DNA from: an uncultured Gammaproteobacteria bacterium
GTDB lineage: Bacteria; Pseudomonadota; Gammaproteobacteria; UBA9214
Reading direction: 5' to 3'
Length of the DNA stretch: 49,448 nucleotides
NCBI GenBank assembly: GCA_963773065.1
Contig: CAVYZN010000020.1
Location: 1 to 49,448 of the forward strand
Positions within the stretch are counted from its first letter, which is position 1. Every line of letters starts with the position of its first letter. Made by a program: the position numbers and the translations under genes. Shown in pieces: positions 10,468 to 40,720 of this stretch. The notes under the pieces were generated by a model. It was not told the origin of the DNA, did not search any database, and saw only the letters and a program-made list of their open reading frames with translations.

Positions 10468-11874
10468 GAGCCTTTTCCAATGACACATGAGCCTGAACGG
10501 GGGTCGTGATTCCAACGTGAAATGAGCCTGAAGGCGGTCGGGAGTTTGGGATCATCGGAGGATGATCGTGACTCTGCAGACCCAAGGACTCCAGACCCTG
10601 GAGCAACTCCGTGCCTTCCTCGAAGGCAGCCAACCCATAGACTTCGATGTCCCCCAGCGTGAAGCCGCCAACGACTTCATCGCACAGACCCTGCGCCGCT
10701 TTGGCTATGCCCGTCTGGGCAAGACCGACAAGGGTTTGGTCAGGCGCTACCTGTGCAAGGTCACCGGGCGCTCGCGGGCGCAGATGACCCGCCGCATCGC
10801 CCAGTTCCGAGCCACCGGCCGGATCGATGATCGCCGCCGTGGACCCGCCAAGGCGTTCCCGCGCCGCTATGCCCGTGAGGATGTCCTGCTGCTCGCCGAG
10901 GTCGACGCCCTGCACGGCACCCTCTCAGGCCCAGCCACCCGCAAGCTCTGCGAGCGCGCCTACACCGTCTTCGGCGATGAGCGCTACGCGCGCCTGGCGG
11001 GTATCTCCAACGGCCACCTCTACAACCTGCGCCACGGCACCGCCTATCAGCGCAGGCGCGGCCCCATGGACAAGACCCACCCGGTCAAGGTCAACATCGG
11101 CGAGCGGCGCAAACCCGCGCCCTGCGGCCAGCCCGGCTTCCTGCGGGTCGATTCCGTCCACCAGGGCGATCTCGACGGCATCAAGGGCCTCTACCACATC
11201 AATCTGGTCGATGAGGTCAGCCAGTTCCAGTTCGTCGGCTCCGTCGAGCGCATCAGCGAGCGCTTCCTGCTGCCGCTACTCGAAGCCCTCATCAGCGCCT
11301 TCCCCTTCCGCATCCTCGGCTTCCACGCCGACAACGGCTCGGAGTACATCAACCGCCAGGTCGCCGGCCTGCTCAACAAGCTCCAGGTGAGTGAGTTCAC
11401 CAAGTCCCGCGCCAGGCACACCAACGACAACGCCCTGGTGGAAAGTAAAAACGGCTCCGTCGTGCGCAAGCACCTCGGCTACGCCCACATCCCCGGCCGC
11501 TTCGCCGCACAGGTCAACCACTTCACCCAGAACGTGCTCTCCCCCTACCTCAACTTCCACCGGCCCTGCTTCTTCCCCACCGAGGCGGTCGATGCCAGGG
11601 GACGCCTGCGCAAACGCTACCGCTACGAGGATATGATGACCCCCTACGAGAAGCTCAAATCACTGCCCGACGCCAACCAATACCTCAAGCCCGGCCTCAC
11701 CTTCAAACAGCTGGATGCAGATGCCAGCGCCATGAGCGATAATGACGCCGCCCGTCACCTCAACCAGGCCCGGGCACGACTGTTCCGTTCCATCAACAAA
11801 ACCCAACAACCGGCCGCCTGAACAGACTCACACACCCCCCCCGTTCAGGCTCATCTCTGGATTGGAAAGGACTG
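10468..11874 (+). mobile_element. Apparently complete IS (ISNCY/IS481-like, rve integrase core) with terminal inverted repeats
   Basis: Left GAGCCTTTTCCAATGACACATGAGCCTGAACGGGGG versus right (reverse complement) CAGTCCTTTCCAATCCAGAGATGAGCCTGAACGGGGG, enclosing the transposase ORF. Confidence 0.85.
10562..11821 (+). CDS. DDE transposase, integrase core domain (ISNCY-type)
   Basis: RVDSVHQGD, GFHADNGSEYIN, NDNALVESKNG catalytic motifs; GGAGG RBS. Confidence 0.9.
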   Translation: MIVTLQTQGLQTLEQLRAFLEGSQPIDFDVPQREAANDFIAQTLRRFGYARLGKTDKGLVRRYLCKVTGRSRAQMTRRIAQFRATGRIDDRRRGPAKAFPRRYAREDVLLLAEVDALHGTLSGPATRKLCERAYTVFGDERYARLAGISNGHLYNLRHGTAYQRRRGPMDKTHPVKVNIGERRKPAPCGQPGFLRVDSVHQGDLDGIKGLYHINLVDEVSQFQFVGSVERISERFLLPLLEALISAFPFRILGFHADNGSEYINRQVAGLLNKLQVSEFTKSRARHTNDNALVESKNGSVVRKHLGYAHIPGRFAAQVNHFTQNVLSPYLNFHRPCFFPTEAVDARGRLRKRYRYEDMMTPYEKLKSLPDANQYLKPGLTFKQLDADASAMSDNDAARHLNQARARLFRSINKTQQPAA

Positions 11875-11967: not shown

Positions 11968-12018
11968 CCTCATTAGTCTCTTATGACTTTACTGTTGACA
12001 GAAATGGCGAAGAGTTTG

Positions 12019-13545
12019 TTACTTTGCAGTGGCCAAAGCGGGAACGATACTGAATTCCGTGAGCGAGCAGGCGGCGGCGATGGCGGCGCGCCCCAAGCGC
12101 GTGAGGTAGTAACGATAAGTTCCGGTGACCCGTTTGATCACGCCGAGGGCAAGCAGCCGTTTCAGCTCTCGCGAGAGCGCAGCCGCCGAGGCGTGGGGCA
12201 GCAAAGCCATCAGATCGGCGCGCCGCAGACCGTGGATATTGAACTGCGGACGTTGCAGTGCCCGCAGCAGTTGCTGCTCGGTGCGCTTGAAGAAGTTCAG
12301 GCCCTTGATCGGCCGGTCGCTCTCGCACCGCTCGTCGGTCAGGCGCGAGAGCGCGCGCTGTCCGGCGCTGTGATTGTCCAGCGCGGACAGATACTCCAGG
12401 TAGCGGCGATTGCATCCCAGGAGGATCTGGCGCAGATCGATCAGGCTGTAGATGGATTTCTTCAGCGGCGCCAGTTGCCGCGTGCTGGGTCTATCTCGAT
12501 GTTCCACCTTGCGGTGGTGCTTGAAGAAGGAGACGTCGTTGACGGTGGTTTCGATGCGCAGCACACGGGCGTATTTGTCGTACATCTTCACCTGAACCTT
12601 GCCCAGGCGATGTTTGATGCAGGTCCCTTCGATGCGGGTGGCAAAGCGGTTGCCGATCTCCTGCGCCAGCGGCGGGGTGATCTTCTTGCCGAGAAAGGTG
12701 GCAATCTGTTCGGCCTTCACCCCCAGCACCGCCTGGCGGGAGAGCTGTTCATACAGGGGCGCCAGCATCTCTTGGGAGCGGAACACCAGATCGGTAGCGT
12801 ACTCCACCTGCAGCAGGCTCCAGTGATAGCCTTGCCCGAAGCTCTTGTGCACCGGGCAGCACTGGCGCGCGTAACGATCCAGGATGCGGTGCAGTTGCTC
12901 GGGCTTGAAGCCATCGGCCAACTGTTGCGCGCGCGCGAAGTCATCCAGGCGCACAAAGGCATTGTCCACCTGGGTAAAGCCGATGCGCCGGGTTTTAAGC
13001 TTCTGCGCCAGCCAACCATGGCCGTTGCAATAGAACTGCAATTTGAACGGGCACCAAGTCGGCACCCGCAGGTAACACAGGCCGACGAGCGGGTCGATGA
13101 AGTAAAAATAGTAGTGCAGGCATTTGCCCGTATCGGGCTTGAGGTAGGTCTTGCCGCTCGCCTTGTCATGCCAGGGCTTGTAGCTTTGACAGGCTTCCAT
13201 CGCCGAAATGATGTGCACCAGACCCGGATGATCGCCGCGCCGCTCAAGCACCTTGGCGACCACATCTTCCTTGCGGATGTGGGCTTTGGCGATATGCTCG
13301 ATCTCGATCCCCGCCGACTGCGCCAGCTCCTGCGCGCGCTCGCGGAGCGCCTCGCGCAAGGGCTCGGCAAACCGGGGATAGTCGAAAATCCGAATGCCCC
13401 TCGCGTACAAAAACGCCGTCATGCCCTGCGCATAGCAGGCCCCCGGCAACGTGCCCGTCATCACGATGCGGTCGTAACAGGAGAGCACCCCATGCAACCG
13501 ATCTGCGTACCGTTCCACCAACGCCTGTGTCATCGTCGCCACCAC
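12019..13545 (-). CDS. Putative mobile-element protein: Rep_trans-like catalytic core plus C-terminal winged HTH
   Basis: 508 aa intact; QVEYATD, KMYDK and LRIETT resemble the RxDxAxD / YxK / RxE signature of Rep_trans initiators; C-terminal SRELKRL..LGVIKRVTGTYRYYLT looks like a wHTH; hairpin just upstream. Confidence 0.55.
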   Translation of the reverse strand: MVATMTQALVERYADRLHGVLSCYDRIVMTGTLPGACYAQGMTAFLYARGIRIFDYPRFAEPLREALRERAQELAQSAGIEIEHIAKAHIRKEDVVAKVLERRGDHPGLVHIISAMEACQSYKPWHDKASGKTYLKPDTGKCLHYYFYFIDPLVGLCYLRVPTWCPFKLQFYCNGHGWLAQKLKTRRIGFTQVDNAFVRLDDFARAQQLADGFKPEQLHRILDRYARQCCPVHKSFGQGYHWSLLQVEYATDLVFRSQEMLAPLYEQLSRQAVLGVKAEQIATFLGKKITPPLAQEIGNRFATRIEGTCIKHRLGKVQVKMYDKYARVLRIETTVNDVSFFKHHRKVEHRDRPSTRQLAPLKKSIYSLIDLRQILLGCNRRYLEYLSALDNHSAGQRALSRLTDERCESDRPIKGLNFFKRTEQQLLRALQRPQFNIHGLRRADLMALLPHASAAALSRELKRLLALGVIKRVTGTYRYYLTRLGRAAIAAACSLTEFSIVPALATAK

Positions 13546-13577
13546 CGCTTAGCCCGTGCGTACAATACCTCTTCCTG

Positions 13578-13603
13578 TTTGGTTCCGGCTATGCCGGCTT
13601 AGG
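13578..13603 (-). repeat. Hairpin terminal motif of the putative element
   Basis: TTTGGTTCCGGCTATGCCGGCTTAGG; stem CCGGC-TAT-GCCGG at 13585-13597, about 35 bp upstream of the gene start. Confidence 0.55.
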
Positions 13604-13938
13604 TTAGAATCCCACGTGAACTACAAGTATTTCGACGGAGACTATTGTGGATTACGTCATTGATGACACGGCATTCTGTGATCGAGCCAGTGAAGTACAC
13701 AAAAAACACAGAAAGATTTTGTTGTAATTAGTCTGTGCGTTTCCATGGCAATAGTGACATGGCATGGTGCGGCGGGCTTCCACCGCGCGGTGGCTCAGCT
13801 TCAGTATGAAGCCCCGCAATTGACATACCGCAATGCAACTGTCGGTCAAATGCCGCAAATTGATAACATGTGTTTCAGTGATGCACTGGGCGGCCCCATG
13901 ATGCATGGTCGAAGCGCGACAAACTCGGAGAGACTGGT

Positions 13939-14349: not shown

Positions 14350-14537
14350 TACGACGCTGGGAATCGTCATTGGGCGCTGCTCGGCAAGGTGTTCGGTATC
14401 ATGCTCATGACCTGTCTCAGCCTGCGCCTGGGGCTCGGAAATCTGTCAGCGGGTGTCCAGATGCGGCATATCGTGGGTATCGGATTGCTTGGGGTATGGG
14501 TTTCACGATCTAGATTTTCATTGCCAGTCTGGGTTTT
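14350..14537 (+). pseudogene. nhaA: Na+/H+ antiporter NhaA C-terminal fragment
   Basis: GKVFGIMLM..LSLRLGLG.LSAGV..RHIVGIGLLG then shifted GMGFTI*IFIASLGF, matching the NhaA GKxxGI...GIGFTMSIFI motif. Confidence 0.7.
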
Positions 14538-14559
14538 TACGACGGAGCACAGCAGGGAA

Positions 14560-14964
14560 GGTCTGCTCGGGGTGCTGCCCCGGCTCAAACGTATCGCGCA
14601 GGGCGGGACTGCAGTGGGGACCGGCGTTAATACGCATCCGATGTTTGCGCAACGCTTGGCCGCGAACCTGGAGCGTCGGACTGGCATCGCCTTCCGGCCT
14701 GCGGGCAATTTCTTTGCCGCGCTGTCGAGCCAGGACACAGCCATTGAACTCAGCGGGCAGTTGCGGGTCATCGCTGTCGGCCTGCTGAAAATCGTCAATG
14801 ACCTGCGCTGGATGAACAGCGGCCCGCTGCACGGGCTTGCAGAAAACCGTCTGCCCGCGCTGCAACCCGGCAGGAGCCTCATGCCCGGCAAGATCAACCC
14901 GGTAATCCCTGAAGTGGTCGCCATGGCCTGCGTGCAGGTGATGGGCAATGACGCCGCCATCATG
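14560..14964 (+). pseudogene. fumC: Class II fumarate hydratase internal fragment
   Basis: AQGGTAVGTGVN, KIVNDLRWMNSGP..GL.E..LPALQPGRSLMPGKINPVIPE (signature GSSIMPGKVNP degraded). Confidence 0.85.
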
Positions 14965-14969
14965 GGCAG

Positions 14970-15580
14970 GACGAACTCATCGAAAAGGGTCCCAATATCC
15001 AGCCGCTGCCACAACTTGAAGCCTTGCCGAACCGGATCAAGGGCCCCGTACTACTGAAGCTGGGCGACGATATCTCAACCGACGAGATCATGCCGGCCGG
15101 CGCCCGTGTGCTGCCCTACCGCAGCAATATCGCGGCGATTGCCCGGTTCGTCTTCGAACCGATTGACGAGACGTTCGACGAGCGGGCCATGGATTGCCGT
15201 GATGCGTGCTCATTTTTAGTCGCCGGACACAACTATGGACAAGGATCGAGTCGTGAGCACGCCGCCCTTGCACCGCGCTCGTTGGGGCTGCGCGTGATCC
15301 TGGCCAAAAGCTTGCCCGCATACACTGGCAGAACCTGGTCAATTTCGGCATTGTCCCGCTGACCTTTGCGCATGCAGAAGACTATGATGCAGTGGGAAGG
15401 GACGATGTGCTCCTTATCAATGACGTGATTGCATCGCTCAGGTATGGCCGCTCGCTGAAAATTGTGAACGAGACAAGAGATCAGACCATCGAGGCCGAAC
15501 ACCAGCTCAGCGAGCGCCAGATCGAGCTGCTGGTCGCGGGAAGTCTGATCAGCTACCTGAAGGCGCGCGCGGACGCATAA
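14970..15580 (+). pseudogene. Aconitate hydratase C-terminal swivel-domain fragment, frameshift near 15315
   Basis: KGPNI..LP, LKLGDDISTDEIMPAG, NYGQGSSREHAALAP, AKS|ARIHWQNLVNFGIVPL. Confidence 0.85.
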
Positions 15581-15766: not shown

Positions 15767-16135
15767 ATGTCAAGTGAAGAATATCATGAACCCCTGAGCA
15801 GTCTTGATGAAGAAACACTGGACATGCACCGGGCGTTGATGTCCCTGGTCGAGGAGCTCGAGGCCGTGGACTGGTATCAGCAACGCGTCACTGCGACTGC
15901 CGATGAGGAACTCAGGCACATCCTTGCTCACAATCGGGATGAGGAGAAGGAGCACGCAGTGATGGTGCTGGAATGGCTGCGACGCCGCGACGCACATCTG
16001 GACAAGCAACTGCGGACCTACCTGCTCACGGACGGCGAGATTACCGAAATCGGGGACGATGAGTCGCCCCCGGCCCAGTCCCCGGATGGATCGCTCGGCA
16101 TTGGCAGTCTGCGTCAGAAAGGAGAAGATAAATGA
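15767..16135 (+). CDS. Encapsulated ferritin-like protein (EncFtn/Flp) with C-terminal encapsulin targeting peptide
   Basis: HRALMSLVEELEAVDWYQQR...HNRDEEKEHA..LEWLRR ferroxidase motifs; DGSLGIGSLR cargo-loading peptide; 4-bp overlap with the encapsulin gene. Confidence 0.95.
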   Translation: MSSEEYHEPLSSLDEETLDMHRALMSLVEELEAVDWYQQRVTATADEELRHILAHNRDEEKEHAVMVLEWLRRRDAHLDKQLRTYLLTDGEITEIGDDESPPAQSPDGSLGIGSLRQKGEDK

Positions 16136-16935
16136 ACAGTTTGTATCGTGAACTTGCGCCCGTCTCCGCGGCGGCCTGGAAGCAAATCGAGGCGGAAGCC
16201 AGCCAGGCGCTCAAGCGTACGCTGGCGGCGCGCAAGCTGGTAGACTTCGACGGCCCGCGCGGCTGGGATGCCTCATCGGTTGATCTGGGGCGCGTCGATA
16301 GACTTGAGGGCGCGCCGCACTCGGGTGTCGAGGCAAGCCTGAGAAAGGTTCAGCCGCTGGTCGAAATTCGGGTTCCCTTCGAGCTTGCACGCGACGAGTT
16401 GGAGGCGATCGATCGGGGCGCGACGGATGCCGACCTGCGGCCCGTGATCGACGCGGCACGGACGGCCGCCCTGACAGAGGACACCTGCATCCTTTACGGC
16501 TACGGCGACGGCCACATCACGGGGATCTGCGAGGCCGCGGCGGCGGCGACCCTTCCCCTCACGGAAGACTACACCCGCTATCCGGATGTCGTTGCCGAAG
16601 CGGTGAATCGATTGAGAATGGCGAGCATCGACGGCCCCTATGCCATCGCTCTGGGACCCCGCTGTTACACCGGGCTCACGCAAACACGCGATGCCGGCTA
16701 TCCCGTCATCGAGCATGTGCGTCGCCTGCTCGAGGGGCCGATTGTCTGGGCGCCCGCCGCCGACGGTGCGTTGATACTGAGCCTGCGGGGCGGCGATTTT
16801 CAACTCACCGTCGGCCAGGATTTCTCCATCGGCTACCTCGACCACAGCTCAACCCGCGTCCGACTCTATATCCAGGAAAGTTTCACGTTCCGGGTCAACG
16901 TCCGCGAGGCGGCGATACCTCTCAAGTATGAATAG
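16132..16935 (+). CDS. Family 1 encapsulin shell protein (Linocin M18)
   Basis: MNSLYRELAPVS.AAW..IE.EA...L...L.ARKLVDF.GP.GW; RGGDF.L.VGQD.SIGY..H....V.LY..ESFTFRV; 267 aa. Confidence 0.95.
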   Translation: MNSLYRELAPVSAAAWKQIEAEASQALKRTLAARKLVDFDGPRGWDASSVDLGRVDRLEGAPHSGVEASLRKVQPLVEIRVPFELARDELEAIDRGATDADLRPVIDAARTAALTEDTCILYGYGDGHITGICEAAAAATLPLTEDYTRYPDVVAEAVNRLRMASIDGPYAIALGPRCYTGLTQTRDAGYPVIEHVRRLLEGPIVWAPAADGALILSLRGGDFQLTVGQDFSIGYLDHSSTRVRLYIQESFTFRVNVREAAIPLKYE

Positions 16936-16992: not shown

Positions 16993-18853
16993 TCAGGACG
17001 CTGCGTGGGCGCCGCCGCGAGGATCAATCAGTCCCCGCACGTACTGTTCAATGGCTTGGTGATCGATCCCAAGGCGCAGGAGCAGCTCGGTCTGTGATCC
17101 CGAGCGGGGGTGTGCCCTCACCGCGAGCCGGTGTACGGGCGCGAGCGCGCCAACGGCGCCCGCCACCGCCTCGCCCAAGCCGCCTTCGGCGACGTGATCT
17201 TCGACAACCAGCAGCAACCCGGTCTCGTGCGCGGCCTGCGTCAGCGAGGCTACGTCCAGCGGCTTGACCGAGTAGGCGTCGATCACCCCGGCTGGCGATG
17301 CCGTTCTTGCGCAATGCGTCATGGGCGGCCAGGGCTTCGCGAACGGTGATGCCCGCCGCCACGAGGGTGACGGCATCCTTTGTCGAGCGGCGCAGGGTCT
17401 TGCTGCCGCCGACTGAAAATACCTCATCGTTCGCGTAGATGACCGACGTCTTGGGGCGGGTTGTCCGGGGGTACACAATACCGGGCGTGGCGGCGGCCAG
17501 TTCCGTGAGCCGCTCGACGCTCACGGCATCGCAGGGATAGAGCACCGTGCTGCCGAACACGGCGCGAAACAGTGCCAGATCCTCGAGGCCCATCTGCGAG
17601 GGGCCATCCTCGCCGATCGAGACACCCGCATGGCTGCCACAGATCACCAGGTGCGGGGGGCGCGTGTGGCCGGCCATGCGCACGAAGTCGGCGGCGCGGC
17701 TAAGAAAACAGACAAAGCTGGCGGCAAAAGGAATCTTGCCGTTGACTGCCAGCCCGAGTGCGGTTCCCACCATGTTCTGCTCGGCGATATAACATTGGAA
17801 AAAACGCTCCGGGATTCGCTCTGCGAAGAGCTTCGTGTATGTCGAGTCCTTGACGTCTCCGTCGAGCACGACGATGTGGGGGTTCTTCTCGCCGAGTTTG
17901 CGAAGGGCGTTGCCGAAGCCCTCGCGTGTGACCACCGCGTCGCCGGGGGTATATTCGTCCACGGTGATTGAAGATAGGGCGGCCACGGCGGAGACCGCCT
18001 CTCACCCAAGCGACGTGGGCCAACTTTGAGTGCGATCTCGGCCTCGCCAAGCTCCTTCAGGGCGCGTTCAAGTTCGTCTTCGTCAAGCGCCTTACCATGC
18101 CAGCTGTGTTCCCCTTCGAGAAACGACACGCCTCTGCCCTTCTCGGTGCGCGCGATGATCGCTATGGGTCCTTCCATTTCGGCGGCGTCGAATGCCGCGA
18201 GGATCGCTCCCAGGTCGTGCCCGTCTATCTCCTGAACCCGCCCATCCGAAACTTTCGAAACGCCGCGCGTACACCTGGGTGTCGTGTCGGTAGGGCGTAT
18301 AACCGGACTGCCCGAGCGCATTGACGTCGACGATGGCGACCATATTGCCGAGCGATTGCAGGGAGGCGAACTGCGCCGCCTCCCACACGGAACCCTCCGA
18401 ACATTCGCCGTCGCCGAGCAGGCAATAGATGCGCGCGTCCAGACCGTCGAGTCGGTCGGCCAGCGCCATGCCGTTGGCCGCCGCCAGACCCTGCCCGAGC
18501 GAGCCGGTTGCGACCCTGACCCAGGGATTGTTGGGCGTGGGATGGCCCTCCAGGGTACTGTCGATCCGCCGCAGCGACAGGGGGTCTTCGTCGATTGCGC
18601 CCGCCTCGGCCAGGGCGGCCCAGAGGATGGGCGCGGCGTGACCCTTGGACAACACAAAGCGATCGACATCGCGCGCGCCGGGATCGCTCGGGTCCCAGCG
18701 CATTACGTGGAAGAACAGCGCCGCGACGATATCCGCACAGGACAGACAGGATGTCGGGTGGCCGGATCCCGCGGCGGTGGTCATGCGCAGCACCAGGCGG
18801 CGCAGCCGCTTCGCCATCTGCGCCAGCGCTGGAATTGTCCGCGCGGTGTGCAT
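16993..18853 (-). pseudogene. tkt: Single-chain transketolase with at least three frameshifts (near 18235, 17990, 17290)
   Basis: SGHPTSCLS, DRFVLSKGHAAP, TGSLGQG, GDGECSEG (TPP motif), IAEQNMV, GEDGPSQM, VEDH spread over several frames. Confidence 0.9.
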
Positions 18854-19467: not shown

Positions 19468-20049
19468 CTAGCCCAGATTTCTGGCCGCGAAATCCCAGTT
19501 GATCAGTTCCTTGACGAATGCCTGAATATATTTGCCCCGTTCATTCTGGTAATCGAGGTAGTACGCATGCTCCCATACGTCGATGGTGAGCAGAGGCCTC
19601 AGACCACGCTGCAGCGGATTTTCCGCATCCGAGCTGTTTATCACATCCAAATGGCCATCGGGACGCTTGATCAGCCAGGCCCAGCCGGAGCCGAATTCCC
19701 CGATCGCCGCCGCGGAAAACCGCTCGATAAAGTTATCGAGTGAACGAAAATCGCTCTCGATCTGTATCGCAAGTGATCCACTCGGCATACCCCCGCCATC
19801 CGGGCTCATGCTGTTCCAGTAAAACGTGTGGTTCCATACCTGTGCGGCATTGTTGAAGATCGAACCGCCGCAGGTTTGAATCAGCTGTTCCAGAGTTTTC
19901 TGTTCATCCGGCGTGCCTTCAATACCGGACTTGAGCTTTATCATATAGTCCTGGTGGTGTTTTCCATAATGGAATTCGAGGGTCCGTTCGCTGATGTGCG
20001 GTTCCAGCGCATTGGTAGCGTATGGCAAGGGGGGCAATTCAAATTTCAT
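19468..20049 (-). CDS. sodB: Fe superoxide dismutase
   Basis: FELPPLPY..ALEPHIS..T.EFHYGKHH, FNNAAQVWNHTFYW, FGSGWAWL, DVWEHAYY. Confidence 0.95.
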   Translation of the reverse strand: MKFELPPLPYATNALEPHISERTLEFHYGKHHQDYMIKLKSGIEGTPDEQKTLEQLIQTCGGSIFNNAAQVWNHTFYWNSMSPDGGGMPSGSLAIQIESDFRSLDNFIERFSAAAIGEFGSGWAWLIKRPDGHLDVINSSDAENPLQRGLRPLLTIDVWEHAYYLDYQNERGKYIQAFVKELINWDFAARNLG

Positions 20050-20314: not shown

Positions 20315-20986
20315 TTAGCGGCTGGACCTATACCGCTTCGGACTCAGAGCCTGTGAAAATATCGACGGCAGTCGCGAGGGCGTCGATTTGCGTGCGAGGC
20401 AAGGCGAGCTGCGCGAAAACAAGGGAGTTTGGCGAGTCAAATGACCGAAGTTTTCGCGTGGCGCAACGCCGCCGCAGCCGCAAAGCGGCGTCCGCAGCAG
20501 GCTGGCGATATTTTCACAGGCTCTCAGCAGACGTTCGCGCAATGCGGAATTGGCGCCCAGCAGGGCGCCTGCGATCAGGGCCCCAATTATGACATCCACT
20601 GTGCGGATGTCCTGCCTGCTTATGCTCGCGCCGATGGTCTCGCCCAAGCGGGCGATGCTGGCTATCCGGGCTGCTTCCGGTGCTGGCTGACTCTTGCCGG
20701 ACGGTTGCGTGGCCTGGCGTCGATGCACAAGAAACCGGGCGGACAGTGCGCCGATGAACGACAAGACCAGCACTCCGCCCCCCACAATCAGCCCCGCTTT
20801 CCATGGGACCATACTCTCGCTCAAGGAGAGATAGCCTCCAACGGCAATAAACGCCAGACCACCGAACGCGGCTAGCGCGCAAAACGCTACCACCCCCATC
20901 GCGACAATGCGCTGTCGCCATTGATCACGCACGTCATTGATCTTTGCCGCCGCGACCCCGCCAAATAGCGCATGGATCAGTTCCAT
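20315..20986 (-). CDS. YqjE/phage-holin-like membrane protein; 3' end probably degenerate
   Basis: Two TM helices immediately downstream of the DUF883 gene, the usual yqjD-yqjE arrangement; tail looks non-coding. Confidence 0.5.
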   Translation of the reverse strand: MELIHALFGGVAAAKINDVRDQWRQRIVAMGVVAFCALAAFGGLAFIAVGGYLSLSESMVPWKAGLIVGGGVLVLSFIGALSARFLVHRRQATQPSGKSQPAPEAARIASIARLGETIGASISRQDIRTVDVIIGALIAGALLGANSALRERLLRACENIASLLRTPLCGCGGVAPRENFGHLTRQTPLFSRSSPCLARKSTPSRLPSIFSQALSPKRYRSSR

Positions 20987-25084: not shown

Positions 25085-25410
25085 CTAGGTCTGTTGACAT
25101 TCAGGCCACATAGGAAAGCAGCTACGAGGGCGATGAACGATGAGAAGCGGCTGGCGAGTTTTTCGTAACGGGTGGCAATTCGACGGAAGTGTTTGAGGCG
25201 ACAGGAGAACCGTTCGATCAGATTCCGATGTTTGTATTGATGCGTATCGAAAACACGCGGTTGCCGCCGATTCTCGCGCGGAGGGATCACTGCAGAGGCA
25301 CCTTTTTGAGTAATGATCTCGATCAGCGACTCGGCATCGTAGGCTTTGTCGGCAACGATGGCCTGCGTGGCAATGCCATCGAGTATCGCCTCGGCCTGCG
25401 TCACATCGTG
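25085..25410 (-). mobile_element. IS5-family (IS427-like) remnant: 3' transposase and right end
   Basis: HD, ADKAYD, AVIPP, YKHRNLIERF..RLKHFRRIATRYEK; end CTAGGTCTGTTGACATTC at 25085. Confidence 0.85.
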
Positions 25411-25430
25411 AATTTCGATCACAGCACTAC

Positions 25431-25515
25431 GAGGAGAGCCAGCATGAAGTTTGAATTGCCCCCTTTACCCTACACTACCAACGCACTGGAGCCGCACATC
25501 AGCGCGCGGACCTTT
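25431..25515 (+). pseudogene. sodB: 5' fragment (RBS plus about 24 codons) of a second Fe-SOD gene
   Basis: GGAGAGCCAGC-ATG and MKFELPPLPYTTNALEPHISART, nearly identical to the start of 19468..20049. Confidence 0.85.
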
Positions 25516-25860
25516 GGTATTCAGGAACACCCGCGTTCCATCCTGCAGCGTCAGGATGCGCTGCTCGCCGATATCCGTGCTGACGCCGGCGCTGCGCTGA
25601 TAGATGAAGAGACCGCAAATCGCTATCAGCGCCACGGCGGCAAGCGCCGCGCCCGCCTGCAAGAAGCCGCGCCGGAATACCGCGCGCTGCCAGCGGCTCA
25701 ACTTTGGAAACGGCCCGCGTGGCAACGCGCCGGCGGATTCCCACGCGGTGGAAATCGTCTCGAAGGCCGCGGCATGACTAGGATGAACGGCCAGCCAGCG
25801 CCTGAAACCGCGCTCGAGCCTTTGCGTCCGTTCAGGACCGCGCAGCAACGATACGCGTGG
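25516..25860 (-). pseudogene. FecR-family anti-sigma factor N-terminal fragment
   Basis: FRRWLA..P.HAAAF......W, a TM helix, then TDIGEQR.LTL.DGT.V.LNT. Confidence 0.8.
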
Positions 25861-25953
25861 TGGCGCGCCATGAAAGGAGGGCGGTTGAGCTCAGGCTCTA
25901 TTTCAGGCGGTTTATATACATTCCATCCGCCCTGAACCTTTTATGGTCAAACA

Positions 25954-31870: not shown

Positions 31871-32334
31871 ATGCCGAACATTGTTACAGTATTGAAGGAG
31901 GAAATTTCCAGACTTGCTCGCAAGGAACTTCGTAATCAGACAGAATGGATGAAGAAGGCGTCGGCGCAATACCGGCGAGATATTGCTGCCTTGAAACGGC
32001 AGGTGGCGATGCTTCAGCGGCAGGTTTCCCATGGCGGTAAGCATGTTCCCGGGATGACCGCGGCTCAACCCGGCGACGAGACCGCAACGCGGGTGCGAAT
32101 CACGGCGAAGGGGCTACGTTCGCAGCGGATACGCCTGGGGCTCTCGGCGGGCGATTTCGCCAGACTCGTGGGAGTGAGTCCCAAGTCAGTTTATAAGTGG
32201 GAGCTGGGAACGGCGCGCCCTCGCAAGGGTCACCTCTCGGTACTCGCTTCCTTCGTGGGATCGGCAAGAAGGAAGCTCGAACCCGTCTGGCGCAACTCGA
32301 CGAGCAGCAAACCAAGCGGACGCGCAAGTCCTGA
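31871..32334 (+). pseudogene. XRE-family HTH regulator with a coiled N-terminus; frameshift near 32255
   Basis: MPNI..VLKEEI.RLARKE; R.RLGLSA.DFA.LVGVS..SVY.WE.G..RPR; likely true tail GIGKKEARTRL...KS* in a shifted frame. Confidence 0.75.
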
Positions 32335-32343
32335 GCCGTGCAA

Positions 32344-32427
32344 TGTTGCCGCCTCGACGATGGTCTCGGCATGCTGGGTGTCATTCTTGACGGATTTGAC
32401 GCTCGGTTTGACGAACTGTGCCAGAGG
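32344..32427 (-). mobile_element. Very short IS110-family transposase remnant
   Basis: PLAQFVKPSVKSVKNDTQHAETIVEAA resembles IS110 PxQFVKPYVKxNKNDxxDAEAIxEA. Confidence 0.6.
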
Positions 32428-32559
32428 AAGTGCAACAAGCCCTCACTACCAGAACCCATACGGATTAAAACGCCCGTGCAAAGGACGAAGGGACGTGGCC
32501 GAACCTTTTCGACGCCCGCACCGGGATGCCGAGTGGAACAGCCCGGAAGATCCGATGAC

Positions 32560-33579
32560 TCAAAGTTTTTCCAGGAACTCCTCGGGCATGTCGACCGCCA
32601 GTTGCAAGGCGCCATCCGCGCCGGCATACAGGGGGTCCTGAATGCAGGTGAATTTGCAGGGCTCGAATTGCTTCATGGCGTCAGTTAGGTAGGTATCCAG
32701 GTTGGTGAGCTGACTGCCGCCTCCGGCGAGGATAATATTGTTGCGCACGCTTTCCTGGAATTCCGGGTCGAAGCTGGCGATGAGATCAATGACGGTCTCG
32801 ATGATCGCGGGCATGGGGCTCTCGCAGGCTTTGCGCATTTCCTCGGTGATATCGAACTGGGTGAACTTGCCGTCCACCGGCGCTTCGACTTTTACCCGCC
32901 GCTTCGACTCGCCCACGAAGCCGTGTTTCTCCTTGAACTTGCGCACCATGTTCAGGGTGAAGTCGGCCTCGGGGTGCTTCTCGGTGAGCAGCCTCAGAAG
33001 TTGCTCGTCAACATAGTCACCCGCCGTGAGGAGGCTGCGCTGGTCCCCTTCCAGAGGCACCGTGCCGTGCATGATGCAGAAATCCACGGTGCCCGCGCCG
33101 ATGTCGATGATCATCGTGTTGTCCAGGGTTCCCAGACCATAGGCCACCGAGAAGGGTTCGGAGACCACCATCAGCTTCTTCGCATGGTCGGATACGGCGT
33201 TCCTGATGGCCAGCTTGTTTACCTTGAGCGCTTCGGCCGGTACGCCAACCGCGACGCAGATTTCGTCCCCCGGACCGGCTTCGGCCATCGCGATCAGGTG
33301 GCCGATCAACTCGCGCACCGCGGCCTCGTCCCGCTCGGTGCCCTCTTTGATGACACCGTTCTGCAGCGGCCGGGATAGCGTCAGGGACAGTCGGTGCTCC
33401 AGGGCCTCGCCGCCGAACAGCGCACGTTTGCCAAGCATCTTCTTGGCGACGAAATCCTTGGGCCACCCGACGTAGCTCTCTACCCATTTCCGGTTGCCGT
33501 TGCTGGCGGAGACCACCGACCTGGAGGTGCCGAGATCGATCCCCACGTAAAGCATGTTATCTTTCTTGCTTGACGACAT
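32560..33579 (-). CDS. mamK: MamK-like bacterial actin
   Basis: Actin-fold motifs GIDLGTS, DIGAGT, AGGGS; MamK-type segments S.VG.PKD....K.LG, PLQ.GV, EIC...GVPA.A...NK, VVSEPF.V.YGL..L.NT.I.DIGAGT.D.C...GTVP...DQ..L..AG.Y.DE.L, DP...G..GAL.LA...P; lacks MreB hallmarks such as GTANT and EPMAAAIGAG. Confidence 0.85.
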   Translation of the reverse strand: MSSSKKDNMLYVGIDLGTSRSVVSASNGNRKWVESYVGWPKDFVAKKMLGKRALFGGEALEHRLSLTLSRPLQNGVIKEGTERDEAAVRELIGHLIAMAEAGPGDEICVAVGVPAEALKVNKLAIRNAVSDHAKKLMVVSEPFSVAYGLGTLDNTMIIDIGAGTVDFCIMHGTVPLEGDQRSLLTAGDYVDEQLLRLLTEKHPEADFTLNMVRKFKEKHGFVGESKRRVKVEAPVDGKFTQFDITEEMRKACESPMPAIIETVIDLIASFDPEFQESVRNNIILAGGGSQLTNLDTYLTDAMKQFEPCKFTCIQDPLYAGADGALQLAVDMPEEFLEKL

Positions 33580-34717
33580 GTTGTATTTTTCCTCTTGCTA
33601 TCGTTCTCTGGGATGCGCGTCGTTCAAGGTATTCGACGATCCCTGTTTCCAGAAAGCCTGCGACACTGTCCCGGTAACCGGGTGTACCCAACCGGTTTTC
33701 CTCCTCCTTGTTGCTGATGCAGGAAACCTCGACCAGCACGCTCGGCACTTCCGCGTCCAACAATACCATAAACGGCCCGGTCTTGGCCCCGGCATCCACG
33801 AGGTCGGCGTTGAGTCGCTTCAGATTAGCATAGAGGTGCTTGTGTATGGAGATGGCCAGCGCCTTCGATTCCTCGGTCTTCAGGGTGTCGCCGATCCTTG
33901 TGATGATCTTGTGGAAGTCTCCCATGACGTAATCGGAGTCGCGGTTTTCCTTCGCCGCCAGATCTAGGGATTGTTGATCCGTGTAGGGCCCGAAGTAATA
34001 GGTCTCGAGGTAATTCACGGCCTTGACCGGCAGTGAGTTCACGTGGATGGAGACGAACAGGTCCGCATGGTTTTCCTTGGCGAACGCCACCCGCTCCTTC
34101 AGGTAGACCTTCCTGTCCTCCTCGCGTGTGAGCAGGACACGGTAATTCCCGGACTTGGTGAGATTGTCGCGCAGGCGCCTGGCGATATCCAGGGCGACAT
34201 CCTTCTCTTTGAGCCCCTGATGTCCGGTGGCACCCGGGTCGATACCGCCATGTCCCGGGTCGATGACGATGGTCTGCACCTTGAGGTCGAAAAGGTCGGC
34301 CATGGGCAAACCGAGCTGGTTAAGCATAGCCTCGTACTGCTCGGCGGTGTCAGCGGTGGTCCCGAAGCTCGCCGGCGCTTCCACGTTCCGTATGAGATTG
34401 ACCCCGGGGTTCGATCCTGCGAGTGTGTCGGCAACGATGGACCGCGCGGTTTGTTCTCCCGTGACCTGCATGGCGACCGGGCCGGAACTGTCCACCGAGA
34501 CGAGCCGGAAATTGATGCCGAGCAGAGCGGCGAGGCCGAGCAGCGTGACGATGACACTCTTGCCCCGATGTCCGAATCTTTTCAGGGAAAGTGGTGTAAG
34601 CGGCGGTGCGGGCACGGGCCGCGACCGTCCCGTGCCCGCGGAGGTACGAGGGATGCCCAGGTTGTCCTCGAAGACACCTCGAAGCACGGCCAGCTTGATA
34701 TCCGGATGACCGTTCAT
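33557..34717 (-). CDS. N-acetylmuramoyl-L-alanine amidase (Amidase_3) with an N-terminal TM anchor
   Basis: IDPGHGG.DPGA, KEKD..L, LTR..D, L.ER, ADLFVSIH.NS, SVLVEV..ISN..E; TM VIVTLLGLAALLGI; overlaps the mamK-like start by 23 bp. Confidence 0.92.
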   Translation of the reverse strand: MNGHPDIKLAVLRGVFEDNLGIPRTSAGTGRSRPVPAPPLTPLSLKRFGHRGKSVIVTLLGLAALLGINFRLVSVDSSGPVAMQVTGEQTARSIVADTLAGSNPGVNLIRNVEAPASFGTTADTAEQYEAMLNQLGLPMADLFDLKVQTIVIDPGHGGIDPGATGHQGLKEKDVALDIARRLRDNLTKSGNYRVLLTREEDRKVYLKERVAFAKENHADLFVSIHVNSLPVKAVNYLETYYFGPYTDQQSLDLAAKENRDSDYVMGDFHKIITRIGDTLKTEESKALAISIHKHLYANLKRLNADLVDAGAKTGPFMVLLDAEVPSVLVEVSCISNKEEENRLGTPGYRDSVAGFLETGIVEYLERRASQRTIARGKIQHVVKQER

Positions 34718-34874
34718 GGACCTTAGGCAGAGGCGCGCGGGGTGCGCGTCAACGGCTCGGTGGGGGGTGCTGCGTTTATCGAGGTGTTGTCTTGCCTGAT
34801 CAAAACGGCGTACATCGGGTTCAGTTCCATAGCTGCAACTATCTTAGTCGAATTGCGCGCACCGGTACACGATC

Positions 34875-35029
34875 GCAGTGGCCTACCGCTACCCGGGGAA
34901 GCCAAGGGCAGGAGGGTGCGGGCGGGACTCGCCGTAAATCCGTCCCTGGAGTCTCGCCGGCCGCATCCCTGCGGCCGATGGTCCCGCCCGTCCCCTCCTG
35001 CCCTTGGCCCATTAGTAGTAGGGCATTGC
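34875..35029. repeat. Long palindromic REP/MITE-like element
   Basis: Arms GCCAAGGGCAGGAGGG..CGGGCGGGAC (34901-34928) and GTCCCGCCCG..CCCTCCTGCCCTTGGC (34981-35008); inner GGCCGCA-TCCC-TGCGGCC hairpin; outer imperfect 12-bp inverted repeat. Confidence 0.7.
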
Positions 35030-35178
35030 TACTGATGGCCTTAGTGATCGGCAATCCGGAATCCGGGACTGCACGAACGGCTGGCACATACCGCATCCGG
35101 CATCTATACTGGAAGTTCGTTCCAAAGTCCTGCTATAACAAAAACATGGCAGGAAATGTTGCAAGATCATAATAAAAG

Positions 35179-36036
35179 GTGGATCGATTGAGCACCCTCA
35201 TACAGCACTGGCAAAAAGTCATTGCTACCATAAGACTATCATTGAAACCGCGAGCGCTTCTTTCGCCGAATCTGGAGGAACTCCAACGCGACATCCTGTC
35301 TCTCACCAGGGAGTATCACACCTTGGCAGGGGAGCTGGAACGGTTCCGCGCTGATTGCGAGCGTGTCAAGTCTGAAGAAAATCGAAAGATCGAGGCCCTG
35401 ACACAGCTTTGCCAGGAGGCGGATACCGCCAGGGGAGCGGATGCGGAAAGGCTGGCGGAGCTGCAACGGCGGTTCACGGAGACCGAATCCGCTCGCGAAC
35501 AGGCGCGTGATCAGCTCAGGGCGATCGAGACCTCCCTGGCTGAATCATCTGATCGGCTGGAAAAACGGAACAATCAGCTCAGGTTTTTGCAGAACTCGAC
35601 GAGCGAACAGATCAAGGCGCTCGAGACTTCCTTGGCCGAGGCATCAAGCCGACTGGAAACAAGAGACAACCAACTCAGCGACTTGCAGGACGCGACGAGC
35701 GAATGGATCAGGGCGATCGAGACCTCCTTGGCTGAAATGTCAATGCGGCTGCAAACAAGCGAGAACCAGTTCAAGGGCCTGCAGGTCAGGATAGCGGAAC
35801 AGGCAAAGCAGCTTGATACCCACTTCTCATACACCGCCTCTCAGGTGGAAGCATCGGATAACCAGCTCAAGGCATTGGAAAAGAAGCTCGAGGTTGAACA
35901 CAAGCTGACGTTGAACATGTTCCAGGAAACACAGAGTAAATTGCACAAACTTCGTCGGCGGTTGATCTGGATAATGGTGGCCGCTGCATTTGCGTTCGTG
36001 TTAGTGGCAGGTGCGCTGCTCATCCGGGATGTATAG
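35179..36036 (+). CDS. Coiled-coil protein with 32-aa tandem repeats and a C-terminal TM anchor
   Basis: 96-bp periodic DNA (35517, 35613, 35709) encoding xxAIETSLAExSxRLxxxxNQLxxLQ; tail RRRLIWIMVAAAFAFVLVAGALLI. Confidence 0.8.
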   Translation: MDRLSTLIQHWQKVIATIRLSLKPRALLSPNLEELQRDILSLTREYHTLAGELERFRADCERVKSEENRKIEALTQLCQEADTARGADAERLAELQRRFTETESAREQARDQLRAIETSLAESSDRLEKRNNQLRFLQNSTSEQIKALETSLAEASSRLETRDNQLSDLQDATSEWIRAIETSLAEMSMRLQTSENQFKGLQVRIAEQAKQLDTHFSYTASQVEASDNQLKALEKKLEVEHKLTLNMFQETQSKLHKLRRRLIWIMVAAAFAFVLVAGALLIRDV

Positions 36037-39947: not shown

Positions 39948-40570
39948 ATGGACCAGAAACCTGTTGAGGATCTGCTGCGGCGGCTGCGGCGCGCCGCGGA
40001 CGCAGAACTGATGGCCCGCTTCAACCGCGTCGGCGCTCGATGCGGCATTGTTCGCCGAGTGGCAGCCACTGGCAGAGATGCGGATGAGCGGGAGCTGGCC
40101 GGCATACTTGGGCGTATGGAACCTGGGGGAAGAGATGGACCTCGATCAGCGCCAGGCGCAAATCGATAAGCCGGGGGCGGGGTTCTGGGTGCTTGATCCG
40201 CTGGATGGAACCAGCAACTGCGTGACCGGCGTGCCGTATTTGCGGTATCTGTGGGGGTGTTAGTAGAGCGCGGGGTGGAACTTGCCATGGTCTATGATCG
40301 CGCGCCAGGAGCTGTTTCATGCGCTGGCGGGGAAGAGAGCCTGGCTAACGGAAAATACTGGGTAAGCGCGCAGCCCTTGCCTCCCTGCGCACGGCAATCG
40401 CGCTGTGAAACAAGCGACAGCCGGCGGAATTCGCACGCCTGGTGGCTGCGGCGCCACGGTTCGAGCGCAGCTTCGGTTCGGTGGGCGGATTGTGGCTGGC
40501 GCCAAACTGCCCTTGTTTTCGCGCAGGCGCGCCTTGCCTCGCACGCCAATCGACGCCCTAAACGCGACGA
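39948..40570 (+). pseudogene. Inositol monophosphatase family gene, heavily degraded
   Basis: LGEEM and FWVLDPLDGTSN...GVPY motifs in broken frames. Confidence 0.7.
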
Positions 40571-40720
40571 GGCCGTGGATATTTTCACGGAGGCTCACAG
40601 GCTGATGCATGCCGTGAACCTGCGGTTCGTTACTTATTCTGACGACGGGGGAAATGTCGGAGCTTGCGTGACGAGCGCCGCCGGATAGCCCGGGTCCGCG
40701 CGGCCTCATCCCGGTTGCCG

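Follow-up and report, generated by a model that had tools for sequence, protein, structure and literature searches.

The DNA considered here, called the window below, is the 49,448-nucleotide contig CAVYZN010000020.1 (C20) of assembly GCA_963773065.1, which comes from an uncultured gammaproteobacterium of the GTDB lineage UBA9214 and amounts to 3.84 Mb in 33 contigs (completeness 91%, contamination 6.3%). One locus of the window encodes an actin of the MamK family, a membrane-anchored N-acetylmuramoyl-L-alanine amidase and, divergently, a tail-anchored coiled-coil protein. We consider it moderately probable that the actin and the amidase form a conserved two-gene cell-envelope module, in which the MamK-clade actin binds the cytoplasmic tail of the amidase and positions the cutting of the wall, and that this module is not the remnant of a magnetosome cluster. 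Filament formation by the actin, the activity of the amidase and the cellular role of the module are parts of this reading that we infer.

The actin (339 residues) scores 412.2 bits against the NCBIfam MamK model NF040964 (cut-off 400; 412.9 bits in the genome scan), whereas it stays below the cut-offs of the MreB models PRK13927 (83.1 against 293 bits) and TIGR00904 (65.9 against 365.75 bits) and of the BeeR model (197.7 against 530 bits). Pfam labels it only as MreB_Mbl, with 85 bits. The closest solved structure is that of MamK from Magnetospirillum magneticum AMB-1 (PDB 5ljw; 294 bits, E 1e-86), which aligns without gaps over 332 residues; entry 8r2n, which we take to be BeeR, gives 133.5 bits, and the MreB chains in the PDB give at most 50 bits. 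Residues D15, G17, T18, E141, D159, G161, G163, T164, G286 and G287, which are the phosphate-binding and catalytic sites, are invariant in 33 of 33 members of the clade described below, and E141 aligns with residue 143 of AMB-1 MamK, presumably the catalytic glutamate.

The position of the actin was analysed in a tree of 168 sequences, comprising 88 actins from loci whose gene context was known in part or in full (80 amidase-linked, six unlinked and two at a contig edge), 61 full-length representatives drawn from a library of 1.84 billion proteins, 14 C-terminal domains of long fusion proteins and five MreB sequences as outgroup. All 80 amidase-linked actins fell into one clade of 89 leaves with an SH-like support of 0.994 (FastTree), the other nine leaves being the two contig-edge loci and seven representatives of unknown gene context. 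The six unlinked locus actins were all placed in the sister clade. A faster IQ-TREE analysis of 112 sequences again placed 41 of 41 linked actins in the clade, whose aLRT value was 80.5. The two representatives that score highest on the MamK model, P0137 (508 bits) and P0181 (472 bits), are also those nearest to AMB-1 MamK (463 and 416 bits, respectively), and both lie outside the linked clade; P0128 was tried as an AMB-1 MamK-like representative and rejected as not close (262 bits against the PDB entry). Representatives with 337-507 bits on the BeeR model form the first group to split from the rest of the MamK family, although the deeper branching is weakly supported and no claim is therefore made as to which group is ancestral. 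No magnetotactic organism was found in the protein clusters of two sets of 10 representatives. The amidase-linked actins are thus, from their sequences, a well-supported clade distinct from classical magnetosome MamK, from BeeR and from MreB.

Members of the linked clade score between 369 and 434 bits on the MamK model, that is, on either side of the curated cut-off, which explains why most of them carry the name of a rod shape-determining protein in the databases; most sources annotate them as "rod shape-determining protein MreB". An earlier note on the window, made from the letters alone, had described an actin closer to MamK than to MreB, and the model and PDB scores, together with the separate clade, place it neither within MreB nor within the plasmid actins.

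Two observations on the wider family were made in passing. Among the library representatives P0132-P0150, P0154 and P0165 are many long proteins of 700-1230 residues whose C-terminal 330 residues make up a full MamK-family domain, with 421 bits (P0132) and 409 bits (P0139) on the MamK model. The cluster of P0141 contains MamK-family proteins, 41% identical to the window actin and with 371 bits on the same model, that are annotated in metagenome-assembled genomes of ANME-2 and Methanosarcinales archaea.

The pairing of actin and amidase genes is kept well beyond the window. Among the window genome (G000) and 40 relatives, a MamK-family gene of at least 396 bits occurs in nine of 41 genomes, all of them in the window's family (9 of its 25 genomes, G000 included, against 0 of 16 genomes from other families of the class). 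The amidase gene lies directly upstream of the actin gene in all eight relatives that carry the latter, and the genes that flank the pair in the window (glgC, tRNA-editing, SLT and MRJP genes) are not kept beside it there. A broader set of 80 loci was selected by family alignment with one genome per species, being kept from 450 confirmed among at least 600 matched stretches; the actins of these loci are 47-89% identical. In 72 of these loci, the amidase gene immediately precedes the actin gene on the same strand, mostly with a gap of -40 to +10 nucleotides, start codons being uncertain. In two of the eight other loci (L085 and L087) the actin gene stands at a contig edge, and six are truly without the amidase over at least 2.7 kb upstream (L093, L094 and L110 from Planctomycetota, and L104, L105 and L109). 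Conservation of the linkage in other genomes, which the earlier note had left to be checked, is therefore borne out both in the relatives and in the broader set.

According to the record titles, the 80 loci come from Gammaproteobacteria, Desulfobulbaceae and other Desulfobacterota, Nitrospirota, Rokubacteria, Rhodothermales, Acidobacteriota (mostly Thermoanaerobaculia), Gemmatimonadota, Aminicenantes, Schekmanbacteria, Acidimicrobiia, Planctomycetota, Omnitrophota and Aegiribacteria. Clustering of all open reading frames (ORFs) in the neighbourhoods revealed no third gene kept beside the pair beyond single lineages. In seven loci (L052, L054, L057, L059, L060, L061 and L095; L052 is recorded as "uncultured bacterium" and the other six as Rhodothermales), the pair stands between genes for proteins of 297 and 176 residues which, by eye, look like thyA (thymidylate synthase) and folA (dihydrofolate reductase). 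The distances between amidase catalytic domains and those between actins are strongly correlated (Mantel r 0.909, with none of 2000 permutations as high), which shows, at the level of sequence, that the two are jointly inherited. A MamK-family match with E<=1e-60, the actin alone being counted, is present in 37 of the 81 genomes sampled from the order of L054 (Rhodothermales by record) and in 47 of the 81 sampled from the class of L065 (Thermoanaerobaculia by record), nearly always as one match per genome.

Two of the unlinked loci that group together, L104 (9911-16063, Aegiribacteria) and L109 (3133-6785, Omnitrophota), each have an ORF for a FeoB-like GTPase nearby and, a short way 5' of the actin, small ORFs that resemble each other at the N-terminus, all of this by eye. 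The Omnitrophota genome of L109 also contains a MamP-like gene on another contig, and the best score in the Aegiribacteria genome of L104 is 30 bits only.

In the window, the 3' end of the amidase gene overlaps the start of the actin gene by 23 bp, as had been read from the letters, and a purine-rich Shine-Dalgarno-like stretch lies within the amidase 3' end, directly 5' of the actin ATG. This layout is typical of translational coupling of the actin gene to the amidase gene. The same 23-bp overlap is found in the loci L023, L024, L025, L026, L027, L028 and L032 of relatives; as L024 and L032 are one contig, it was counted in six relatives' genomes. The amidase-actin junction is bridged by RNA-library contigs in two metatranscriptome runs from two studies (X15 record 4, corresponding to 33496-33649, and X16 record 13, corresponding to 33419-33818). 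Contigs of run X17 touch the junction without 31 letters on each side and were not counted as bridging. Contigs of four metatranscriptome runs contain pieces of all three genes of the locus at 90-100% identity; other parts of the stretch had no contig in these four runs, a gap that carries no evidential weight. Among the public sequencing runs none contained half of the words of the stretch.

The amidase matches Pfam Amidase_3 with 155.5 bits (cut-off 27) over residues 150-360, and its catalytic domain aligns from end to end with Bartonella AmiB (PDB 3ne8, 120 bits) and with E. coli AmiA (8c2o) and AmiC (4bin); the top Foldseek matches are the same AmiB, AmiA and AmiC enzymes. All 33 linked amidases in an alignment that covers many phyla share H156, E171, H225 and E330. 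From the alignment to 3ne8, 8c2o and 4bin and from general knowledge, we take the first three to be zinc ligands and E330 to be the catalytic glutamate. The Amidase_3 domain spans 211 residues for a model of 174 positions, and the alignment continues across the insertion of AmiB, AmiA and AmiC, a stretch that is presumably their regulatory segment. There, the pair E257-N258, at the end of a helix formed by residues 248-257, is likewise invariant in 33 of 33. As the catalytic residues and this pair are invariant, the enzyme looks active, and autoinhibited in the manner of AmiA, AmiB and AmiC. It scores far below the cut-offs of the equivalog models of these enzymes, with 127 bits for AmiA (cut-off 400), 113 for AmiC (cut-off 700) and 85 for AmiB (cut-off 532).

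The N-terminus of the amidase sets it apart, since it has neither an export signal peptide nor an AMIN targeting domain such as AmiB and AmiC possess and instead carries an N-terminal helix, a basic linker and a membrane helix. In the AlphaFold model, a helix of residues 5-19 is followed by a basic disordered linker, a membrane helix (residues 53-71) and a disordered periplasmic linker. The only strong hydrophobic stretch ahead of the catalytic domain starts at residue 55, and a basic stretch precedes the membrane helix in the orthologues as well. These features suggest an N-in topology, with the N-terminal helix in the cytoplasm. The helix follows a motif of approximately K-x-x-[IL]-L-R-x-[VA]-[YV]-[ED]-[ED]-N-[LV] from Gammaproteobacteria to Gemmatimonadota; N19 is invariant in 33 of 33 sequences and L12 is present in at least 90%. 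A periplasmic enzyme with a conserved peptide in the cytoplasm would be expected to have a partner there. The motif was not found among the neighbours of the six unlinked actins. A search with residues 1-60 returned only eight close amidase relatives among 44 candidates, and is uninformative because a word search is insensitive to a motif of 16 residues.

The structure of a complex between the actin and amidase residues 1-56 was predicted with our own alignments in one job. The complex score was 0.79 (0.78, 0.80 and 0.79 in the individual runs), and the best of three controls reached 0.00. In the calibration of the tool, the mark is reached by 58 of 80 solved complexes and by 2 of 110 mismatched pairs, a calibration that holds only roughly here because own alignments were used. 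The runs share at least 39% of their contacts, and the pLDDT of the partner is about 50. As ParM-ParR illustrates, structures of actin-like proteins bound to partner helices have been solved, so that part of the score may reflect likeness to them. The prediction, which the earlier note had proposed for the actin and the cytoplasmic N-terminus of the amidase, thus supports, without proving it, binding of the actin to this tail.

On the tail, the predicted interface consists of residues 4, 7-8 and 10-20, i.e. the conserved helix. On the actin it consists of residues 126, 136-139, 147, 150, 152-153, 172-174, 327, 330-332, 335 and 338-339, from which we infer a docking site between subdomains IA and IIA, in a groove that the C-terminal helix lines. 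Two of these positions distinguish the linked clade in the alignment. At position 126, 78 of 80 linked actins have R or K, whereas I, L or V occurs in all 10 sister sequences and accounts for 11 of the 13 residues listed for the classical MamK group of 18 sequences. Position 136 is L in 70 of 80 linked actins and mostly V or A elsewhere. A basic residue at position 126 that faced the conserved acidic pair of the tail would be a plausible co-adaptation.

The third gene of the locus, for the coiled-coil protein, behaves differently from the pair. It is divergent and upstream of the amidase gene in seven of eight relatives, and neighbourhood clustering did not find it in any locus outside this gammaproteobacterial family. 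In a scan for tail-anchored coiled-coil ORFs within 2 kb of the pair, only the eight loci of the family passed a crude composition filter, by which proteins of other compositions are missed. Pfam and NCBIfam give only generic coiled-coil matches for the protein, and PHROGs and PADLOC likewise yielded nothing beyond generic fold or coiled-coil matches. Judged by its distribution, the gene is a family-specific accessory and not part of the conserved core. The distinct cytoskeletal module that the earlier note had envisaged therefore stands for its actin-amidase core, while the coiled-coil gene, described there as divergent, membrane-anchored and repetitive, is all of these and yet belongs to this family only. 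Its product may, as a guess, be a membrane-side adaptor or spacer for the filament, an idea loosely encouraged by coiled-coil partners of MamK in Desulfovibrio magneticus (PMC12748827).

No mam-like, MreC/D, PBP2 or RodA family was found in a Pfam scan of the 39 ORFs of the window, as the earlier note had stated, and no mam island appeared elsewhere in the 91%-complete genome. The MamI model had no match, the MamP model gave at best 30 bits (cut-off 300) and the MamQ model gave 68 bits (cut-off 250), a generic LemA-type match. The MamP model can detect a distant MamP, as it gives 173 bits in the Omnitrophota genome of L109, with weaker MamP matches within 26 kb of the same contig; the MamI model was silent in every control genome, so that its silence weighs less. 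In five other genomes that carry the pair, the MamP model stays at or below 43 bits. The location outside any magnetosome cluster, which the earlier note had singled out, holds for this genome but is the rule for the linked clade and not an oddity. A canonical mreB gene is present at C33:76073-77023, with MreC beside it at C33:75094-75531, and a second amidase with N-terminal AMIN-like repeats (by eye) is encoded on C11. The pair is therefore an addition to the canonical mreB-mreC genes and an AMIN-type amidase, not their replacement.

The mechanism that these results suggest would run as follows. The conserved cytoplasmic helix of the amidase would dock on the actin, in the groove formed by the IA/IIA linker and the C-terminal helix. 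Polymers of the actin, or the ends of polymers, would then fix or move the amidase in the membrane, and the filament would thereby set where, or when, peptide stems of the wall are cut from the glycan. In the window's family, the tail-anchored coiled-coil protein would have been added, probably as a membrane-side adaptor or spacer.

Several points weigh against this account. The predicted binding comes from a single structure-prediction job with a partner pLDDT of about 50, and if the docking groove is also the longitudinal contact of the polymer, the tail would bind only monomers or filament ends. The Mantel correlation and the congruence of the clades are expected of any co-inherited genes and are no proof of contact. 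Support for the linked clade is moderate in the IQ-TREE analysis, where the long-branch representative P0206 is pulled into it. RNA-library contigs cannot prove a single transcript and may include DNA. The absence of mam genes depends on three models and a genome that is 91% complete. The module is patchy in the window's own family (9 of 25 genomes) and hence dispensable. Finally, in the second copy of the locus described below, the amidase differs by 13 nonsynonymous codons, which places at least parts of it under loose constraint.

An unlikely alternative is that the amidase serves mainly as an anchor in the wall and that the filament positions a cytoplasmic cargo (storage granules or the nucleoid, for example), possibly by way of the coiled-coil protein. 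Classical MamK is established as a positioner of organelles, the tail-anchored coiled-coil gene adjoins the pair in this family, and the predicted contact between tail and actin fits anchoring as well as steering; MamK-type actins also work together with coiled-coil proteins in deep-branching magnetotactic bacteria (PMC12748827). However, strict conservation of the four catalytic residues and of the Glu-Asn pair (33 of 33) would not be expected of mere wall binding, and outside this one family there is no third conserved gene and hence no cargo adaptor.

It is also rather improbable that the two proteins are co-expressed without touching each other, both serving one process such as developmental or stress-induced wall remodelling, with the tail bound to another partner or to the membrane. 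Operon partners need not interact, the fold of the tail is predicted with low confidence (pLDDT about 50), and mismatched pairs do occasionally reach the prediction mark (2 of 110). Against this alternative stand the score of 0.79 compared with 0.00 in all three controls, an interface position 126 that is R or K only in the linked clade, the strict pairing (80 of 80 linked actins in one clade and 6 of 6 unlinked ones outside it) and the overlapping reading frames.

That the pair is a cassette of a mobile element or phage, made up of a signal-anchor endolysin and a ParM-like segregation actin, is very improbable. The amidase domain does match PHROG endolysin families (85 and 68 bits), the actin weakly matches a PHROG partition protein (33.9 bits), the flanking genes vary between genera, and an insertion sequence (IS) and repeats resembling miniature inverted-repeat transposable elements (MITEs) lie nearby. 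The endolysin matches, however, span only about 90-100 residues of the shared Amidase_3 fold, the tree groups of the pair follow host taxonomy, nearly all genomes with a match have one copy, seven related loci keep the pair between the thyA- and folA-like genes, and neither phage or plasmid genes beside the pair in the window nor PADLOC matches of note were found. Descent as a stray paralogue or as the leftover of a lost magnetosome cluster is largely refuted, in spite of an actin above the curated MamK cut-off and of silent magnetosome clusters in non-magnetotactic bacteria (PMC9938234), by the results for MamI, MamP and MamQ in this genome and for MamP in the five others, by the separation of the clade from the representatives nearest to AMB-1 MamK, and by the presence of a MamK-family gene in about half of the sampled genomes of the order Rhodothermales and the class Thermoanaerobaculia.

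A bolder extension of the actin-amidase module, possible but doubtful and to be taken as a whole, would give many bacteria a third wall machine built on an actin, in addition to the MreB elongasome and the FtsA divisome. A dynamic MamK-type filament would then grip the helix of the autoinhibited amidase in its barbed-end groove, as in ParM-ParR, and would carry or gate the enzyme, the dynamics of the polymer deciding the site of the cut. Magnetosome MamK would be one specialised branch of an older wall-associated actin family, and the machine would be a core feature of the cell biology of about half of the species of Rhodothermales and Thermoanaerobaculia.

Features of the actin-amidase locus (positions in the window)
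Feature	Coordinates	Strand	Evidence
MamK-family actin-like ATPase, 339 aa, member of the amidase-linked clade	32560..33579	-	ORF, NF040964, PDB 5ljw
Bitopic N-acetylmuramoyl-L-alanine amidase of the AmiA/B/C type, 386 aa	33557..34717	-	ORF, Pfam Amidase_3, PDB, Foldseek, AlphaFold
Conserved cytoplasmic N-terminal helix, predicted actin-binding element (amidase codons 5-20)	34658..34705	-	alignment, AlphaFold, complex prediction
Single transmembrane helix, probable N-in topology (amidase codons 53-71)	34505..34561	-	hydropathy, AlphaFold, preceding basic stretch
Periplasmic Amidase_3 catalytic domain with regulatory insertion (amidase codons 149-345)	33683..34273	-	alignment to AmiA/B/C
Putative regulatory helix of the amidase (residues 248-257)	33947-33976	-	AlphaFold model, invariant E257/N258
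Overlap of amidase 3' end and actin start, 23 bp	33557..33579	-	ORF coordinates
Divergent intergenic region between amidase and coiled-coil genes, 461 bp	34718..35178	.	ORF coordinates
Tail-anchored coiled-coil protein, 285 aa	35179..36036	+	ORF, repeat, C-terminal hydrophobic segment
96-nt repeat x2.9 inside the coiled-coil gene	35512-35785	+	repeat scan
C-terminal membrane segment of the coiled-coil protein	about 35962-36024	+	hydropathy, residues ~262-282
Terminator-like hairpin, ~70 nt 3' of the actin stop	32471..32487	-	consensus match only

The signals around the locus are weak. The terminator scan gave 2 matches where 3.7 were expected from shuffles, and two sigma-70-like matches on the plus strand (35081-35110 and 35146-35173) compare with a shuffle mean of 1.1; both scans were judged to be at or below chance. 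An ORF for an HTH_3 regulator (31871-32641, plus strand) converges on the actin gene and overlaps its 3' end by 82 bp. Only its first ~144 residues are kept in the relative G001, and in the copy on contig C1 it falls into two frames, so that the real gene is probably shorter than the ORF.

This copy belongs to a second occurrence of window positions 29874-49373 on contig C1 (C1:43427-66753), with 94-97% identity and all three genes, the left 30 kb of the window being single. C20 and C1 end at about the same homologous point, and the second occurrence is either a second strain in the bin or a true segmental duplication. The two copies of the actin gene differ by 9 codons, all synonymous, which was counted as evidence of selection. 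Those of the amidase gene differ by 6 synonymous codons in addition to the nonsynonymous ones mentioned above, and in the C1 copy two frames share the coiled-coil match, the break lying near codon 28.

The earlier note had also described much of the island adjacent to the three genes as broken, which is only partly true. Fragments at 8232-9666, 14389-15057, 17048-18669 and 25189-25935 include a sigma-54 activator split into two overlapping ORFs, a C-terminal Lyase_1 piece, pieces of transketolase and a piece of superoxide dismutase (SOD). The SOD fragment covers the first 25 residues of the SOD domain only, and an intact SOD gene lies at 19468-20049. An intact gene for an encapsulin shell protein (Linocin_M18, 291 bits; 16132-16935, plus strand) stands amid the broken genes. 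A 1.63-kb element at 11974-13604, with an ORF of 539 residues that has no Pfam match, recurs in copies of 99.8-100% identity on C14 (twice), C27, C19 and C6 and is probably an active insertion sequence; an ORF with a weak match to an rve integrase (10562-11821) adjoins it. A MITE-like repeat of ~185 bp at 20343-20527 has at least 16 more copies of 93-99% identity on 11 other contigs, and a diverged partial copy of it lies at 40489-40602.

To our knowledge, bacterial actins with known jobs are few, namely MreB, FtsA, the ParM-like actins and MamK, and keeping wall hydrolases in the right place is a long-standing problem. The linked clade is very widespread, coherent and defined by sequence, and its partner is named by the operon itself; with a conserved helix of 16 residues on this partner and a specific docking site predicted for it, the question can be tested directly. 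As mamK is used as a marker gene for magnetotactic bacteria (10.1101/682252), matches to MamK need to be read anew, since proteins near or above the cut-off are common in non-magnetotactic Acidobacteriota, Bacteroidota, Nitrospirota, Desulfobacterota, Gemmatimonadota and Gammaproteobacteria. No report linking a MamK-like actin to an amidase was found in the searchable literature; subscription journals and supplements lie outside this search, and an earlier description is possible.

Among the known systems, MamK of AMB-1 (PDB 5ljv, 5ljw and 5jyg) belongs to the same NCBIfam family as the window actin and shares its nucleotide-binding motifs and catalytic glutamate. The window actin differs from it in lying in another well-supported clade and in a genome where the three models found no mam genes, and R/K126 and L136 are characteristic of the linked clade. 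The linked actins are paired with an amidase, unlike those of the six unlinked sister-clade loci, the Planctomycetota loci among them, and BeeR-like representatives stand apart, close to the base of the MamK family in the tree. Relatives of MamK outside magnetotaxis are known from saltatorellin, which forms filaments in E. coli (10.1101/817700), from BeeR, which forms filaments in vitro (PMC11929497), and from the mamK-like genes of Beggiatoaceae and Thiomargarita, which are large sulfur bacteria (10.1101/2022.04.11.487978); no mention of "amidase" was found in the accessible parts of these papers.

Other actins offer partial parallels. The C-terminal helix of ParR binds a groove between subdomains IA and IIA of ParM at the ends of filaments, and ParM-ParR is thus a possible model for the predicted docking site, although the pair described here has no partition context, centromere or plasmid. 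In Bacillus subtilis, MreBH directs the wall hydrolase LytE, likewise a case of an actin guiding such an enzyme; LytE is secreted, and its gene is neither fused nor coupled to the actin gene. The site on FtsA that is bound by FtsN is subdomain IC. FtsA-FtsN resembles the contact predicted here: an actin homologue, FtsA, binds a bitopic periplasmic wall protein, FtsN, through a short peptide at the cytoplasmic N-terminus of the latter (10.1101/2021.11.08.467742). FtsN is not an enzyme, however, and FtsA belongs to a different actin family.

On the side of the hydrolase, AmiA, AmiB and AmiC of E. coli (PDB 8c2o, 8c0j and 4bin) have the same catalytic domain, including the insertion with the blocking helix, whereas the window amidase lacks the export signal and the AMIN domain and has a cytoplasmic helix and a membrane anchor. 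Control of a periplasmic amidase from the cytoplasm has a precedent in the ATPase FtsEX, in the context of EnvC and NlpD, with FtsEX-EnvC governing AmiA and AmiB (PMC10268282, PMC10214136). In Hyphomonas neptunium and Rhodospirillum rubrum, the bactofilin BacA recruits LmdC, a bitopic M23 peptidase that makes the contact with its N-terminal cytoplasmic tail, and genes of the bacA-lmdC type are adjacent in many phyla (PMC10945521). There is no homology between the two systems, the polymer being an actin here and not a bactofilin, the enzyme an Amidase_3 and not an M23 endopeptidase, and the contact only predicted. In both, however, the gene of a polymer adjoins that of a bitopic hydrolase and the adjacency is kept across phyla, so that BacA-LmdC is the best functional analogue, and we rate the pair as the actin-amidase version of this pairing of cytoskeleton and hydrolase.

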